Positions 25,324 through 53,615 of a stretch of DNA of 64,000 bases are shown here, in pieces. The translations under genes and the position numbers were made by a program. This DNA is from Candidatus Woesearchaeota archaeon (lineage in GTDB: Archaea > Nanobdellota > Nanobdellia > Woesearchaeales > GCA-2686295). Under the pieces are notes generated by a model. It made no database searches. It saw only the letters and a program-made list of their open reading frames with translations, and had not been told where the DNA came from. The stretch is from positions 17,408 to 81,407 of the forward strand of contig CALDOJ010000038.1 of the NCBI GenBank assembly GCA_937912225.1, in the 5' to 3' direction. Position 1 is the stretch's first letter. Every line of letters starts with the position of its first letter.

Positions 25324-25450
25324 GGGGACGTAGTATAACCTGGCTAGAATGGTCGGCTCCAGAATCTGGAGCAATGAGGCATTGCCAATGATTAATAATG
25401 CCCATTCGTGGAGATACCGTCAGATGAGGGTTCGAATCCCTCCGTCCCCA
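25324..25450 (+). tRNA. Intron-containing tRNA (~74-nt mature tRNA plus ~53-nt intron); anticodon tentatively CCA (tRNA-Trp)
   Basis: Acceptor stem GGGGACG/CGTCCCC with discriminator A, T-arm GAGGG-TTCGAAT-CCCTC, and candidate anticodon loop CU-CCA-G. A 53-nt insertion with two hairpins (CTCCAGAATCTGGAG; GGCATT..AATGCC) sits at the canonical 37/38 position. The D-arm pairing is imperfect, so the isotype is uncertain. Confidence 0.7.
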
Positions 25451-47802: not shown

Positions 47803-48399
47803 TTGAATTTTGATGCTGACAAAGAAAAAACTTTGAAACGAATGCTTCTAAATGATAAAAGCGATAAAGGTTCAGTAGATAAACCAATTCAAAAACTAGT
47901 TAATTTAATTAATGCTAAAGAAGATTATTACACTCTTAGTTCTTGTTCTGGAAGAATTGTTTTACTTTATATTCCTGATACTGGTAAAAAGCGAGAAGCG
48001 GAGTTTATTGTTAGAACGCATGATTTAATTAAGAGTTCTAAAGTGAAATCAGTAATTAAGGAATTACTTAATTATGTTAATTACAATAATGATGGAAGTA
48101 TTTGGTTTAAACAAGACCCTCCAATAGTTCATATTGGATCAAGAACTTTAAAGCAAGCTTCAGACCTTTTAAGAAATGCAAGAACAATTGGTTTTAAAAG
48201 AAATGGATTATTCGAAGTAGAAAAAAGATTCTTAATGGAATTAGTATCAACAGAACGAACAGATGCAATAATTGCTCAAGACGGAAAACTATTAGTGCCA
48301 GAAGAATATATTAAAACTTTGATTGAAGTTGGAAATAAGAAACTTGAACAATCATGGACAAAAATTAAAAAATTAGAAGCAGAAATAAAAAAGTTATAA
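47803..48399 (+). CDS. taw3: tRNA wybutosine/wyosine-synthesizing protein 3 (Taw3/TYW3 family methyltransferase)
   Basis: Conserved TLSSCSGRI motif characteristic of TYW3, about 200 aa. Confidence 0.65.
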   Translation: MNFDADKEKTLKRMLLNDKSDKGSVDKPIQKLVNLINAKEDYYTLSSCSGRIVLLYIPDTGKKREAEFIVRTHDLIKSSKVKSVIKELLNYVNYNNDGSIWFKQDPPIVHIGSRTLKQASDLLRNARTIGFKRNGLFEVEKRFLMELVSTERTDAIIAQDGKLLVPEEYIKTLIEVGNKKLEQSWTKIKKLEAEIKKL

Positions 48400-49599
48400 T
48401 TCTAAAAGTTCATCAATCTCTTTTTTCATACGTTCATTAAACTCATAAACTTTTTCACCTTCACCTTTTTCTTGAGCAAAAGACTTCAAAAGTTCTTTGG
48501 CAATTTTTTCTTCATTTTTAGAAAAAGAAGTTTTAATCTGACCAAGATGTTCTTTTAAAATTTCATTTTCAACTTCATCAATAGAATCAGATTTAATCTT
48601 TATTTCTTCAAATTCCTCGCTTGTAAGTTTAGAAGTATTTTTCATAACAAAATAAGCTCCTTTTTCATAAAGTTTTTCAAATAAAGATTTAAAATCAATA
48701 TTAGAAGGTTTACCAGTTTTTAATTTGCCAAACACTCTTAACAAAACAATTTGATCTTTAAAATCAGAAGTTTTGATAATATCAATTAATTCTTCATAAA
48801 CTTCTTCAGGATTTTTATGTTTTGCATTAATTTTAATAGGGAAAACTTTCTTAATAACAATAGGAACGAACTCAACTTTTCCATGATTATAAATATAAAA
48901 ACTACCTTGCTTCAAAAATTCAAGTTCATAAAAGTTAGCCGGAAATAAGGGTCCAGGCAAAGTCACATTTTTGTAACCTTCCAAGTTTTTATGCTCAACA
49001 ATATGAACATGACCGCCTGCATAATAATCAAAACCTTGAGGTAAAAATGAAATAGGAGAAGACTCCATTAATTCTAATGCCTTAGGTTTTAACTCAGTTA
49101 AAGAAGTGTGAAACATGAAAATCTTAAACCCATCTTCAGCTTCAAGATAGTTCTTGTTAAGCTTTTCATAATAAGTTCTTTCAAGCATGCCACGTTTACC
49201 AAGCAAACCAGTAATCTTAGCACCAGTCTTTTCATCAATTGTGAATTTAAGTTTTAATTTTTCATTTTCAACCGTGCCTTTAACAACATTAATCATTAAA
49301 CCAGCTTCTTCTAAAACATCAAGAATAGTCTTACCGGATGGAGAAAAATCATGACTTCCAGGAATGATATAAACAGGAATTTTCAAATCTCTTAATTCTC
49401 TAAGCTTTTTAGTAGTTTCTTTAAGAAAATCAATACCAGGTAAAGAAGTATGAAATAAATCACCAGCAATTAAAACAAAATCAACCTTTTGTTCAATACT
49501 AATATTGATTGCTTTAATGAAAGCTTGCATGGATAAATCTTTTAATTTAGGATCACGCCATGAACCAATATGACAATCAGCAATATGTGCAAATTTCAT
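48394..49599 (-). CDS. mre11: DNA double-strand-break repair nuclease Mre11 (calcineurin-like phosphoesterase)
   Basis: [34 protein letters not shown] phosphoesterase motifs in Mre11 order. Length 401 aa. Confidence 0.7.
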   Translation of the reverse strand: MKFAHIADCHIGSWRDPKLKDLSMQAFIKAINISIEQKVDFVLIAGDLFHTSLPGIDFLKETTKKLRELRDLKIPVYIIPGSHDFSPSGKTILDVLEEAGLMINVVKGTVENEKLKLKFTIDEKTGAKITGLLGKRGMLERTYYEKLNKNYLEAEDGFKIFMFHTSLTELKPKALELMESSPISFLPQGFDYYAGGHVHIVEHKNLEGYKNVTLPGPLFPANFYELEFLKQGSFYIYNHGKVEFVPIVIKKVFPIKINAKHKNPEEVYEELIDIIKTSDFKDQIVLLRVFGKLKTGKPSNIDFKSLFEKLYEKGAYFVMKNTSKLTSEEFEEIKIKSDSIDEVENEILKEHLGQIKTSFSKNEEKIAKELLKSFAQEKGEGEKVYEFNERMKKEIDELLEL

Positions 49600-50360
49600 T
49601 TATTATCCTCATCAAACCAATCTCCAAACATTTTATTAGCTGGTTCTCTATCTTCATTTACACTTAGTGCATGATCTGCTCCTTCTAAGATAATTAAACT
49701 TCCATCAGGAAAACCTTCAACAACTTTTTTACTTTGTTCTAGATTTACATCTTTATCTTCATTTCCATGAATAATTAAAACAGGACAAGTAATATTTTTA
49801 ACTTTATCATACATAATATTTTTTTGTGCATCTTCAAAGAAAGAATAATTAAGTTTTACTTTTCCTTTGGAAGCACTAAGAAAATATGCGAATCCTTTCT
49901 CTTTCCAGTTCTTTGTATTTTCAAAAGTTTTACTATTCAAAGTTTGAGATATATAATTTGAAACAGGTGCTTTTAAACCAATCTTTCCAGTTTCAGGAAA
50001 TTTTAAAGCAGCAGCCATAACAGTTATTCCTCCTGCACTAGAGCCGAATAAATCTATTCGTAAATAACCTCTTTCTTTCATTAATTTTATTGCAGCAATA
50101 GTATCTTCAGAAGCTTTTGTAGTAGTATGATCTTCAAATTTTCCTTCACTTTCACCACAACCATTCAAATCAATTCTAAAAGAATTAATTCCTCTTCTAG
50201 TAAGTTCTTCAGACATTATCTTTGAAGAAGTTCGATTCTTATTACTTGAAAAACCATGAACTATTACTACAACCCTTTCTTTCTTTGGGTTTGGTTCTTC
50301 TAAAATACCACATAACTTTAATCCATATGAATTTTTAAAGAATATCTTTTCTTCTTTCAT
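49596..50360 (-). CDS. Alpha/beta-hydrolase fold protein (esterase/peptidase S9-like)
   Basis: HG oxyanion motif VVIVHGFSS and nucleophile elbow GSSAGG (GxSxG). It overlaps both neighbours by 4 nt. Confidence 0.6.
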
Positions 50361-51883
50361 CCTAGTTTAACACCTTCAAAACTAGTTTTGGTATTGTCGG
50401 TTTTTTTAGTTAACTTTACTGTGTCTTCAAAGAATGGAATCTTTACTGGTAATGCAAATTTTGCAAAATTACTGCTAATAATTGCTTCTCCAACGTCAAG
50501 ACTTGCAATAGCTCGGTCATCAGATTTCATATCTTGAGATGCTGATTCAATAATTGCTTGTCTTTCAGAATTCATTTCTGTTCCCATAATAATCTTAGTA
50601 TTTATGTTAGCTAGAATCTCTTTTGGAATTAAACTTGGAAGCTGTGTAATTGCAACTAGACCAAGACCAAACTTTCTTCCTTCTCGAGCAATTGTAGAAA
50701 AAATATTACTTCCTCGTTCCAATACTTCTTTTCCAATAACTCGAGGTGCTTCTTCTAAAACTATTGAAACAACAGGTTTATCATTTATGCCTTTTGTTTT
50801 GTAACGTTTATATCGATAGAAAATTTCAGTAGTAATAAGCGAACCAATCAATAACTCAATTTGACCTGAAAAATCACTTGTATCAATTATAACAGTATGT
50901 TCATTTTCTAATTCTGAACAAATATCTCTAATAGTATTTTGTCCAGCTTGCTTGTCAAATATTCCACCGCAATGAATATCAGTTCCATCAAAATCTAAGT
51001 CTAAGAGAAGTTTAAGTTTTCTTCTAATAACAACAATTGACATTTCATGAAACTCTTTTACATCACTATTTGCCAAATCTTCTGTGAATAATTTTTCAAT
51101 CCAAAGCTTGCCGAATTTTTTAAAATAAGCATACAAAGCTTGTCTTTGAGCGCTTGTAAAATTTACAAAATCAAAATGATCAGGTCTTAAATTTTCAAGA
51201 TTAATTTTCAAACTTCTTTGACCTGTAGGAACTTGTTTAGGAGTATAGTAAACAACTTTTTTACTAGGATGGTCTTTTAATCCAATTTTATTTCGACCAA
51301 AATACTCATCATGAGGATCTAATATTAGTAAAGCACAATAATTTTTATCAATAGTATCCCATATTAAATTACTCATCAAAACACTTTTCCCTTTACCGGT
51401 TGTTCCTGTAATTAAAACATGATGTGAGAAAACTTTATCTCCTTCCAGATAAATAGGAAACTTCAAATCTTTAGTTCCTGATCTTAGATTACCAAGTGAT
51501 AAAGGATTCTTTGGTCTTGTTAAAAATGAAAGGTCTTCTTTTGTAACTTCCCTGACCTCTGAAAAAAAATCCGGTAAAGATTTTGATGAAGTAGCTTTTG
51601 TATCTTTGATTGAAATTAAGTTTTTTAGTAAAGCGATTTTATAGTTTCGTAAGTGAGGTTCCATGAATTCTAAGTTAGAACTTTCTTCTAAACTCATTCC
51701 TGAAATTAACTCCAGGTTCTGCTGAGAAATTTGACTTCCATACAAAAGGTCATATACTTGTAATAAAATTTTACTGTTCTTTGTATCTGCAATTAGTAAT
51801 TCTCCAAGCTCTAATTCTTCACCAGCTTTCTGCCTAATAAAGATTTCTCCAAATCGTCCAGAAATAACTTGCCCCTTAATCAT
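50357..51883 (-). CDS. herA: HerA/FtsK-like P-loop ATPase (DUF87), probable bipolar helicase HerA
   Basis: N-terminal beta-barrel-like region, Walker [18 protein letters not shown], Walker B-like [11 protein letters not shown], 508 aa, in an operon with mre11. Confidence 0.55.
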
Positions 51884-51961: not shown

Positions 51962-52366
51962 ATGAAGGTTTTATACGTTGCTCGAGGAATTGTTCGTCAT
52001 CAAAGAAAATATTTAATGTTGAAAAAACTTACAGGTGTTTTAGATGAAGATGTTGGTATGTGGGAAACACCTGGCGGAAGAATTGAAAAGAACGAAGATC
52101 CAAAAAAAGCGATTTTAAGAGAAATAAAAGAAGAAATTAATTTAGATTGTAAAATAATTAAAGAATTGCCTCTTTTACATGTTATTGACAAGCAAGTTGA
52201 TAGCACAGCTCATATTTTTTTGTTAAATTCAACTACTGATAAAATAACTCTTTCACACGAGCATTCAGACTATAAATGGTGCACAATAGATGAAATCAAA
52301 ACACTTAATACGGTTTATACTGATTTATTGTTAAAGAATTTAGAGTTAGCTGAAAAAATAAAATGA
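51962..52366 (+). CDS. NUDIX hydrolase
   Basis: Nudix box GMWETPGGRIEKNEDPKKAILREIKEEINL (GX5EX7REUXEEXGU). Confidence 0.8.
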   Translation: MKVLYVARGIVRHQRKYLMLKKLTGVLDEDVGMWETPGGRIEKNEDPKKAILREIKEEINLDCKIIKELPLLHVIDKQVDSTAHIFLLNSTTDKITLSHEHSDYKWCTIDEIKTLNTVYTDLLLKNLELAEKIK

Positions 52367-52820: not shown

Positions 52821-53615
52821 TTATAATAATGGGTTTTGTCCACCATATAAGGCATTAAATTGTCCATTCTTAAATTCTAATGAAAATACATCATTATTAC
52901 AATTTGTTGCTCTCATTTTAGGAACAGATATTTCTCGAACCATTTTTCTTCTGAATGGAGATAATCTTAAATGAATTATTCCATCTGATAAAAAGTCTTC
53001 AATCCCAAACTCACTATATTGGCTTCCATCGAGTGGCATTTCTGATATTAGATAAGTTGTTAATCCCATATCTCTTAAGAATTCAAATATGTAGAACAGT
53101 TCTATTCTTGGATTTTCAAATCTTGATAACACATATAATGCTGACATTGAGTCAAGAACAAAAACTTTGCATTCTATTTCTGCTTTTACTTTTTTAACAA
53201 TGTTTTTGATTACATTCATCCAACTTTTGTTATCTCCAACTTTTATATCTTTAATTTCTTTTCTAATACATCCAACATCTGCAAGCAGAATATTTCCTTT
53301 GCCTGAAGCTTTAGCATCTCTGATTACTTGGTCGATTTTTGTTAAATCATCAATCTTTAATAAGCCCATATTTTCAGAGTTTAATCCCATTCCATCCATA
53401 TGTTGTTGTAGTGATTCAAAGGATTGCTCCAGAGAAATATACAACGAGTTTCTTCCTGCTAATGCTTCATTATAAATTATGTTGAAACATAGCGATGATT
53501 TCATTGTACCGGCTGTACCGCTAATTAGCGTGATGTGTTTTTCAGGTATTCCGCCTGAAATTGCTTCATCAAATCCATTGATGTATGTTTTTATCCTATT
53601 AAGTTGACCTTCCAT
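52821..53615 (-). CDS. KaiC-domain / RecA-superfamily ATPase (RadA-paralog-like)
   Basis: GFDEAISGGIPEKHITLISGTAGTMKSSLC (Walker A in KaiC/RadB context), 264 aa. Confidence 0.65.
   Translation of the reverse strand: MEGQLNRIKTYINGFDEAISGGIPEKHITLISGTAGTMKSSLCFNIIYNEALAGRNSLYISLEQSFESLQQHMDGMGLNSENMGLLKIDDLTKIDQVIRDAKASGKGNILLADVGCIRKEIKDIKVGDNKSWMNVIKNIVKKVKAEIECKVFVLDSMSALYVLSRFENPRIELFYIFEFLRDMGLTTYLISEMPLDGSQYSEFGIEDFLSDGIIHLRLSPFRRKMVREISVPKMRATNCNNDVFSLEFKNGQFNALYGGQNPLL

Follow-up and report, generated by a model that had tools for sequence, protein, structure and literature searches.

A herA-like/mre11-like gene pair conserved in Woesearchaeota-type DPANN archaea, with a variable slot that probably holds a passenger hydrolase gene

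In thermophilic archaea such as Sulfolobus and Pyrococcus, herA and mre11 lie adjacent and co-oriented in a four-gene nurA/herA/mre11/rad50 cluster, described for thermophiles in titles cited in PMC8708640. Purified Sulfolobus Rad50, Mre11 and HerA co-precipitate (PMC2288612), and titles cited in PMC8708640 and PMC2288612 call HerA an Mre11-complex-linked ATPase and an Mre11 interactor. Structures are available for the HerA-NurA complex (4D2I; Thermococcus kodakarensis 9X1L/9X1M) and for Mre11-Rad50/SbcCD (P. furiosus 1II7/3DSD; M. jannaschii 3AV0), and HerA-type rings also work with single effectors in the anti-phage systems Sir2-HerA/Nezha, DUF4297-HerA and TdpAB. Here we describe a related locus in a 64-kb stretch of DNA (~29% guanine plus cytosine, GC; hereafter the window) from the DPANN archaeon Candidatus Woesearchaeota archaeon (GenBank assembly GCA_937912225.1, contig CALDOJ010000038.1), in which genes for a HerA-like ATPase, an alpha/beta-hydrolase and an Mre11-like nuclease follow one another on the same strand (Table 1). 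A preliminary description, made from the sequence alone, had set this trio against a herA-mre11-rad50-nurA cluster taken to be the archaeal arrangement; that cluster exists, but to treat it as general goes too far, the published description being of thermophilic archaea.

The locus shares with the thermophile cluster the order herA then mre11 and their common orientation, and differs from it in three respects: neither rad50 nor nurA lies at the locus, whether in the window or in 83 relatives; both proteins belong to divergent subfamilies, the nuclease with a GSHD motif III; and the two genes are set apart by a cargo slot of variable content. Base composition does not explain the difference, because complete nurA-herA-mre11-rad50 clusters occur in two AT-rich archaea (L336, 24.8% GC, and L337; loci are designated by L and proteins by P with a number). 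We suggest, with a probability of roughly 0.7, that the locus elaborates, in a lineage-specific way, a conserved, core chromosomal, single-locus herA-like/mre11-like module of Woesearchaeota-type DPANN archaea, and that the hydrolase is a passenger in it.

The three open reading frames (ORFs) coincide exactly with those of the preliminary description, and both junctions of the trio are 4-nt ATGA stop/start overlaps (CTAGGATGAAAGAA and AATAAATGAAATTT). They are real genes rather than chance ORFs, because the two outer proteins each have thousands of homologues, at 56-74% identity, in public metagenome-assembled genomes (MAGs). Scanning an alignment of the ATPase family against species-representative genomes yielded at least 512 confirmed relatives, nearly all labelled Woese- or Nanoarchaeota or unclassified archaeal MAGs; the top ATPase homologues are 60-74% identical to the window protein, and the Mre11-like homologues 56-70%. 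From these we fetched 80 loci and added 3 by exact look-up, giving 83 non-redundant loci. An Mre11-like gene lies no more than 10 kb downstream of the ATPase gene in 60 of the 83, co-oriented with it in 58. Fourteen loci are too short for the presence of the nuclease to be judged, so that it is found in 60 of 69 informative loci, in 23 of which the two genes abut (gap <200 bp). The gap is <20 bp in 8 loci, 20-200 bp in 15, 0.2-1 kb in 17, 1-2 kb in 11 and >2 kb in 9. With a co-oriented nuclease gene downstream in most loci, the conserved unit is therefore a pair, herA-like then mre11-like, and not a three-gene arrangement. The suggestion of a degenerate or remodelled operon accordingly divides: the locus is remodelled, as a two-gene module conserved across a DPANN lineage, and is not a one-off degenerate variant.

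The pair has housekeeping neighbours, among them TYW3, AspRS/AsnRS, GatB/GatA and RNase HII, with oapABC in many relatives. Homologues of these origin-associated genes lie a few kb from the pair, comprising an OapA-like GTPase in 29 loci, OapC (PF09845) in 27 and OapB (PF09846) in 19; they were seen in L009-L088 and are absent from the window. The herA-mre11 pair may thus often sit near a replication origin. Directly upstream of the ATPase gene, ~46 of the 83 loci carry another co-oriented gene pair, which the window lacks. One gene encodes a protein of 229 aa with a PIN-like N-terminus (FDTGPII), one copy of which carries DUF3368; the other, overlapping it, encodes 184 aa with a helix-turn-helix-like (HTH-like) C-terminus. 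A profile search of the PDB with the PIN-like family gave no match. These two genes could supply the module with a third partner, of nuclease type, or could form a pair resembling a toxin and its antitoxin. Many pair-carrying MAGs are titled "uncultured Methanosarcinales archaeon" (L014, L020-L022, L028 and others), another bears the title "Alphaproteobacteria bacterium", and an Mre11-like protein is attributed to "Bacteroidota bacterium" (the entries concerned include L086 and P0142); these titles probably reflect mislabelling or mis-binning.

By sequence and predicted fold, the ATPase belongs to the HerA clade of the HerA/FtsK superfamily, as a divergent subfamily of predicted hexameric-translocase type. 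Pfam assigns it to DUF87, "Helicase HerA central domain" (91.7 bits), and its closest solved relative in sequence is S. solfataricus HerA (4D2I, E 7.6e-20, residues 100-487). In an AlphaFold2 model (pLDDT, predicted local distance difference test, 78.9), beta strands at residues 2-50 and 80-112 precede a RecA-like core; the N-terminal barrel (~1-112) resembles a HAS-barrel, and the family member P0118 has a precomputed PF09378 HAS-barrel assignment. A Foldseek search with the model also returned 4D2I (E 4e-28, template-modelling (TM) score 0.75, 507 columns), and its top 50 matches were all HerA-clade rings (HerA-NurA, Sir2-HerA, DUF4297-HerA, TdpAB), with no VirB4, TrwB or FtsK among them. 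The protein has a Walker A motif (G-T-T-G-K-G-K-S, 161-167), an acidic Walker B (E377/E378) and an R400-E-G-R-K-F405 motif; Walker A, Walker B and the arginine-finger-region motif align with the same motifs of Sulfolobus HerA, and G163, G165, K166, S167, E377, E378 and R400-E-G-R-K-F405 are invariant among 28 family sequences. The predicted architecture of barrel, RecA-like core and R-E-G-R-K-F is that of the HerA-NurA complex, with the difference that the partner gene here encodes an Mre11-type metallophosphoesterase and not NurA, of which there is none nearby. The similarity of the ATPase to canonical HerA is about half that of the NurA-linked HerA of an AT-rich DPANN-type contig (74 bits against 148 bits for that of L334, both compared with 4D2I).

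The phosphoesterase likewise falls within Mre11/SbcD by sequence and predicted fold, again as a divergent subfamily. It matches Pfam Metallophos (58.6 bits), its best NCBIfam models are all Mre11/SbcD, and its best PDB match is P. furiosus Mre11 (E 1.8e-26). In the AlphaFold2 model (pLDDT 85.8), residues 1-~230 form the phosphoesterase core and residues 232-327 a capping-like beta domain; a disordered, flexible linker (331-339) leads from there to a module of three C-terminal helices (340-400), which is conserved in the family. All top 50 Foldseek matches are Mre11/SbcD, the best being 3DSD (E 9.5e-21, TM 0.75), and the model aligns over ~360 columns with P. furiosus structures of the Mre11 nuclease and capping domains. 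Its resemblance to Mre11-Rad50/SbcCD extends over the predicted nuclease and capping folds, the linker with a C-terminal helical module behind it, motifs I, II, IV and V and, in motif III, the catalytic His. Residues D8, H10, D47, S82, H83, D84, H164, H197 and H199 do not vary among 29 family members; these positions span motifs I, II, IV and V and, in motif III, the His-Asp. Motif III itself reads GSHD and not GNHD in 29 of 29; GNHD is usual in Mre11/SbcD and in most calcineurin-like enzymes, and is retained by the Rad50-linked Mre11 of L336. The locus also departs from Mre11-Rad50/SbcCD in having no adjacent rad50 and in scoring well under curated cut-offs. The preliminary description was right about both outer genes: the first is HerA-like rather than a conjugation- or VirB4-type DUF87 ATPase, and the phosphoesterase does not group outside Mre11.

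The reported absence of rad50 and nurA from the locus was also borne out. The window contains no Rad50- or NurA-like gene, and ~10 kb of the source contig past its end holds only glycogen-metabolism and FtsX genes, neither Rad50 nor NurA among them. Across the relatives, Rad50 was found within 10 kb of the pair in 0 of 83 loci (regular expression, phmmer with the P. furiosus Rad50 N-lobe, and a DPANN Rad50 hidden Markov model, HMM), and NurA near the ATPase in 0 of 83 (NurA probe on 1.33 Mb of flanking DNA). The DPANN Rad50 HMM was built from 80 representatives, gave 674 bits on a positive control and was run on every ORF of the 1.33 Mb. Zinc-hook Rad50 with an adjacent NurA-HerA pair is present in L334 (26.7% GC; Rad50 class labelled Diapherotrites), and in L334, L336 and L337 alike, that is, wherever NurA was found, it adjoins HerA. 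Because Rad50 and NurA were recovered in these AT-rich loci, their absence beside the Woesearchaeota pair is not a detection problem. Identity between the window proteins and the partner-linked ones is just 23-29% for HerA and 21-30% for Mre11, and because they are far more divergent than partner-linked HerA and Mre11, the Woesearchaeota genes are a distinct subfamily pair.

Several candidates for the missing partners were rejected. Rad50 candidates from the probes in the 1.33 Mb were merely small ABC-type ATPases and coiled-coil noise; among the large ORFs of the window, Pfam gave STT3, a T2SSE ATPase, a carbamoyltransferase and others, none of them Rad50-like; and neither a 741-aa window ORF without Pfam match nor an 844-aa ORF near the L006 copy is Rad50 by Pfam and PDB sequence search. 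Recurrent ~260-aa ORFs without Pfam match just 3' of the ATPase gene were considered as divergent NurA and dismissed as poorly conserved and helix-rich. A degenerate-DNA scan of metagenomes for low-GC Rad50 returned RecF/OLD-type ATPases and one mre11-rad50 operon, bacterial and Athalassotoga-like; its pattern demanded the Walker A Asn, and so misses the DPANN G-I-M-G-S-G-K-S-S type, and was too promiscuous on viral DNA.

DPANN Rad50 proteins have features of their own. The short zinc-hook Rad50 family (Table 1) has members of about 686 and about 785 aa, shorter than the ~880 aa of model archaea, and the Walker A of P0307, P0320 and P0322 reads G-[IS]-[MI]-G-S-G-K-S-S, not G-x-N-G-x-G-K-S-S. 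A profile search counted 1,333 representative clusters in the DPANN Rad50 family at E <= 1e-30. In L334, the operon runs nurA-herA followed by a gene for a 491-aa protein without Pfam, NCBIfam or Mre11 similarity, and no Metallophos gene lies nearby; the Mre11 position may there be filled by this protein. Among the papers searched, none dealt with the distribution of HerA, Mre11, Rad50 or NurA in Woesearchaeota or DPANN.

The strongest of the alternative readings is an ordinary four-gene system that has been split, with canonical Rad50 and NurA encoded elsewhere in the genome and the pair acting as in thermophiles, as Mre11-Rad50 plus HerA-NurA; we regard this as a serious possibility, at somewhat less than even odds. 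A C-terminal helical module behind a flexible linker is the layout of a Rad50-binding domain, Rad50 is reported in other DPANN (Undinarchaeota, Diapherotrites, Aenigmarchaeota and Micrarchaeota), and the clustering of all four genes is described as a thermophile feature and not one of all archaea. Against this, NurA never accompanies this ATPase in the 83 loci, yet adjoins HerA in L334, L336 and L337; NurA- and Rad50-linked versions from equally AT-rich archaea are clearly less divergent than this ATPase and nuclease; and motif III of the nuclease is invariably GSHD. In a weak test, 20 DPANN Rad50 clusters were looked up, and the 5 that could be named (Micrarchaeota, Aenigmarchaeota, Diapherotrites) included no Woese- or Nanoarchaeota label.

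In the mechanism that we propose for the pair, the HerA-like protein would be a ring translocase that feeds duplex DNA ends, and the Mre11-like dimer would be the source of nuclease activity; together they would form a helicase-nuclease end-processing machine for double-strand-break or fork repair. We infer such a machine because direct contact between HerA and Mre11 is known from Sulfolobus. A stronger form of this proposal, which we hold only tentatively and think rather unlikely, less likely than the split system, is that Woesearchaeota-type DPANN archaea lack Rad50 and NurA, and that the HerA-like ring works directly with the GSHD-type Mre11-like dimer in minimal end resection. The nuclease would then occupy the position that NurA has on the translocase, and its conserved C-terminal helices would have switched from Rad50 to HerA as their binding partner.

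In defence systems, ATPases of the HerA clade are combined with a variety of effectors, and such structures are among the top fold matches of the ATPase, so that the pair might instead belong to an anti-phage system or a mobile element in which a HerA acts with an effector, as in Sir2-HerA/Nezha or DUF4297-HerA, the Mre11-like protein being the nuclease effector. The principle of a ring ATPase with a single effector is indeed the same, PADLOC HerA models match the ATPase with up to 113 bits, and a PemK toxin, an AAA_14 ATPase and DNA methylases in or around the slot have the look of defence cargo. The PADLOC matches are partial, however, confined to the C-terminal part of the ATPase (the best, at 113 bits, covers residues 323-488) and no better than those to repair HerA; no defence-specific model matches the pair and there is no cognate effector. 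The best fold match is the repair HerA of Sulfolobus, and the nuclease is of repair type. The pair occurs in at least 512 species at 56-74% identity, in synteny with housekeeping genes and not patchily as in a defence island, and no relatives were found on 2.9 million viral contigs. Because its conservation is vertical, within one lineage, and syntenic, we consider a defence or mobile system improbable.

The slot between the ATPase and nuclease genes is an insertion hot spot that collects unrelated genes by lineage. Its 87 ORFs fall into 72 families, 62 of them singletons. In relatives with ~70% core identity the slot holds MazG and NUDIX in L004; two MazG genes, a 47-aa ORF and an alpha/beta-hydrolase in L332, the hydrolase directly upstream of mre11; and an AAA_14 ATPase, an 87-aa ORF and a PemK toxin in L333. 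Remoter relatives carry a DNA methylase, a GGDEF protein, an NAGPA/phosphatase protein, small helix-rich proteins or, in one case, two small unknowns. In the closest relatives, NUDIX and MazG nucleotide pyrophosphohydrolases turn up repeatedly as cargo near the pair. Several slot ORFs right after the ATPase gene encode fast-evolving proteins of 150-270 aa, helix-rich or coiled-coil-like (Table 1), with weak coiled-coil-type matches that extend to the coiled-coil part of the Rad50 HMM; they may be a degenerate structural partner or low-complexity cargo.

The hydrolase of the window matches Pfam Hydrolase_4 (68.3 bits, gathering threshold 27) and also Peptidase_S9 and Abhydrolase_1. Its nucleophile elbow is the G-S-S-A-G-G recognised in the preliminary description, and in an alignment with 3PF8 it falls, like the D in "NEDKDV" and the H in "GADHAL", on the triad positions. 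Among solved structures the hydrolase comes closest to cinnamoyl, feruloyl and chlorogenate esterases, led by L. johnsonii LJ0536 (3PF8, E 2.5e-23), with which it shares a length of about 250 aa, the alpha/beta fold and the G-x-S-x-G elbow; it differs from them in lying inside a DNA-repair-type operon, which we attribute to insertion rather than function. It had no PADLOC match and no nuclease-family signal in Pfam, NCBIfam or PDB comparisons. No homologue of it lies between the ATPase and nuclease genes in any of the 83 species-level loci, in 23 of which the core genes abut; the sole other slot hydrolase, in L332, is 29% identical to it, while the flanking genes are 70-74% identical. Because there is one such copy, so diverged between well-conserved flanks, and because slot cargo elsewhere is unrelated, the hydrolase is best read as a lineage-specific, translationally coupled passenger of predicted carboxylesterase type, with no demonstrable link to DNA processing. 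The alternative is that it is a functional part of the module that replaces NurA or Rad50, or that processes a DNA-linked adduct such as a protein-DNA ester. Its ATGA overlaps with both neighbours imply co-translation, and the second alpha/beta-hydrolase stands in the same position in the closest relative; nevertheless its distribution largely refutes such a role, and its nearest characterised relatives act on small molecules. The earlier suggestion that it stands in for a nuclease is likewise not supported, and we give a functional role for the hydrolase very little credence.

That the ATPase is a DNA-transfer enzyme (VirB4/TraC-type conjugation or Ced-type import), its linkage to a phosphoesterase incidental, is equally hard to credit because of fold and neighbours: there are weak NCBIfam matches to CedD (75.7 bits) and, at the P-loop, to VirB4/TraD-type models, as well as Pfam traces of AAA_10 and TrwB, but the fold matches point to full-length Sulfolobus HerA with its N-terminal barrel, no membrane or pilus partner genes are conserved beside the ATPase, and the Mre11-like gene accompanies it in 60 of the 69 informative loci.

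Several observations weigh against the conserved herA-like/mre11-like module as we read it. The ATPase is far below the cut-offs of the repair-HerA equivalog models NF040937 and NF040819 (81.1 against 800 bits and 77.8 against 970 bits); against the NCBIfam model the L334 HerA reaches 187 bits over its full length, itself also under the cut-off, and the window ATPase 81. The nuclease scores 97.8 bits over residues 1-380 with Mre11_Pyroc (cut-off 600) and is below the other curated cut-offs too (Mre11_Sulfo 73.2 against 500; TIGR00619 sbcd 48.3 against 77.65 bits); on NCBIfam models the L336 Mre11 attains 243 bits (242.7, Mre11_Sulfo) and the window nuclease 98. The Asn of motif III that is replaced by an invariant Ser is a metal ligand (N84 in P. 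furiosus), and because of this replacement the active site, hence substrate or metal use, may differ from that of Mre11. The nuclease gene is missing from 9 of the 69 informative loci, with 3.5-10 kb of downstream sequence covered. The oapABC adjacency could mean a role in replication or segregation and not in break repair. The ATGA overlaps make it probable that the hydrolase is co-expressed with the pair, so that the two may be functionally coupled to some extent. Finally, the function predicted for the pair is drawn entirely from homology and gene linkage.

Other features of the window agree with its archaeal origin: it encodes AglB/STT3, TYW3 and a probable intron-containing tRNA, and near relatives of its proteins are labelled Woesearchaeota, Nanoarchaeota or Nanoarchaeia MAGs. 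The tRNA was matched by Rfam and left unreported by ARAGORN, as would fit an archaeal tRNA with an intron. The TYW3 gene converges on the Mre11-like gene and is kept beside it in the closest relatives, L004, L332 and L333. Just upstream of the ATPase gene lie a gene for a single-domain ATPase of the KaiC/RadA superfamily, with weak RadB/RadA and ArlH similarity, and a beta-propeller gene, in synteny kept in the same three relatives. The NUDIX gene is transcribed divergently from the ATPase gene and is a neighbour rather than a recognised part of the module. It has 38% identity over 52 aa to the NUDIX protein of L004, and the two are not orthologues, because only the Nudix box is shared. A scan for bacterial promoters and terminators was uninformative for an archaeon.

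Table 1. Coordinates of the genes and other features discussed, in the window and in related loci.
Feature	Sequence	Position	Strand	Length	Remark
HerA-like ATPase	window	50357-51883	minus	508 aa	
alpha/beta-Hydrolase	window	49596-50360	minus	254 aa	
Mre11-like nuclease	window	48394-49599	minus	401 aa	
Motif III of the nuclease	window	49353-49364			G81-S82-H83-D84
TYW3 methyltransferase	window	47803-48399	plus		3' end overlaps Mre11-like gene by 6 nt (48394-48399)
NUDIX (MutT-like) hydrolase	window	51962..52366	plus		Pfam NUDIX 58.4 bits; best NCBIfam model MutT-type
KaiC/RadA-superfamily ATPase	window	52821-53615	minus	264 aa	
tRNA match	window	25324-25450	plus	127 nt	Rfam 40.8 bits
Short zinc-hook Rad50	L334	6510-8558			also P0307, P0320, P0322, P0334-P0483
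491-aa protein, operon nurA-herA-491aa	L334	9059-10534	minus	491 aa	
Helix-rich or coiled-coil-like slot ORF	L008	11525-11974			
Helix-rich or coiled-coil-like slot ORF	L018	11558-12379			
Helix-rich or coiled-coil-like slot ORF	L067	11526-12317			
Helix-rich or coiled-coil-like slot ORF	L073	11521-12300			
Helix-rich or coiled-coil-like slot ORF	L040	8162-8833			
oap homologue (example)	L027	3087-3722			
oap homologue (example)	L052	213-602			
oap homologue (example)	L022	5682-6080			
Upstream PIN-like/HTH-like pair (example)	L025	2821-3510			
Upstream PIN-like/HTH-like pair (example)	L025	2267-2824			
Upstream PIN-like/HTH-like pair (example)	L063	1967-3207			

The linkage and contact of HerA and Mre11 are known, always within a four-protein system; here a very large uncultivated lineage keeps only the pair together. 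Esterases, MazG/NUDIX enzymes, toxins and methylases have all been inserted at the herA-mre11 junction, a hot spot that offers a caution for annotation: a gene tied to its neighbours by ATGA overlaps in a tight operon can still be a passenger. If Rad50 and NurA should prove absent genome-wide, the pair would be a natural minimal resection machine, in which the joint capabilities of HerA and Mre11 could be tested directly. No smaller cellular helicase-nuclease system that processes double-strand breaks would then be known, and partner swapping in the HerA family would extend beyond immunity.

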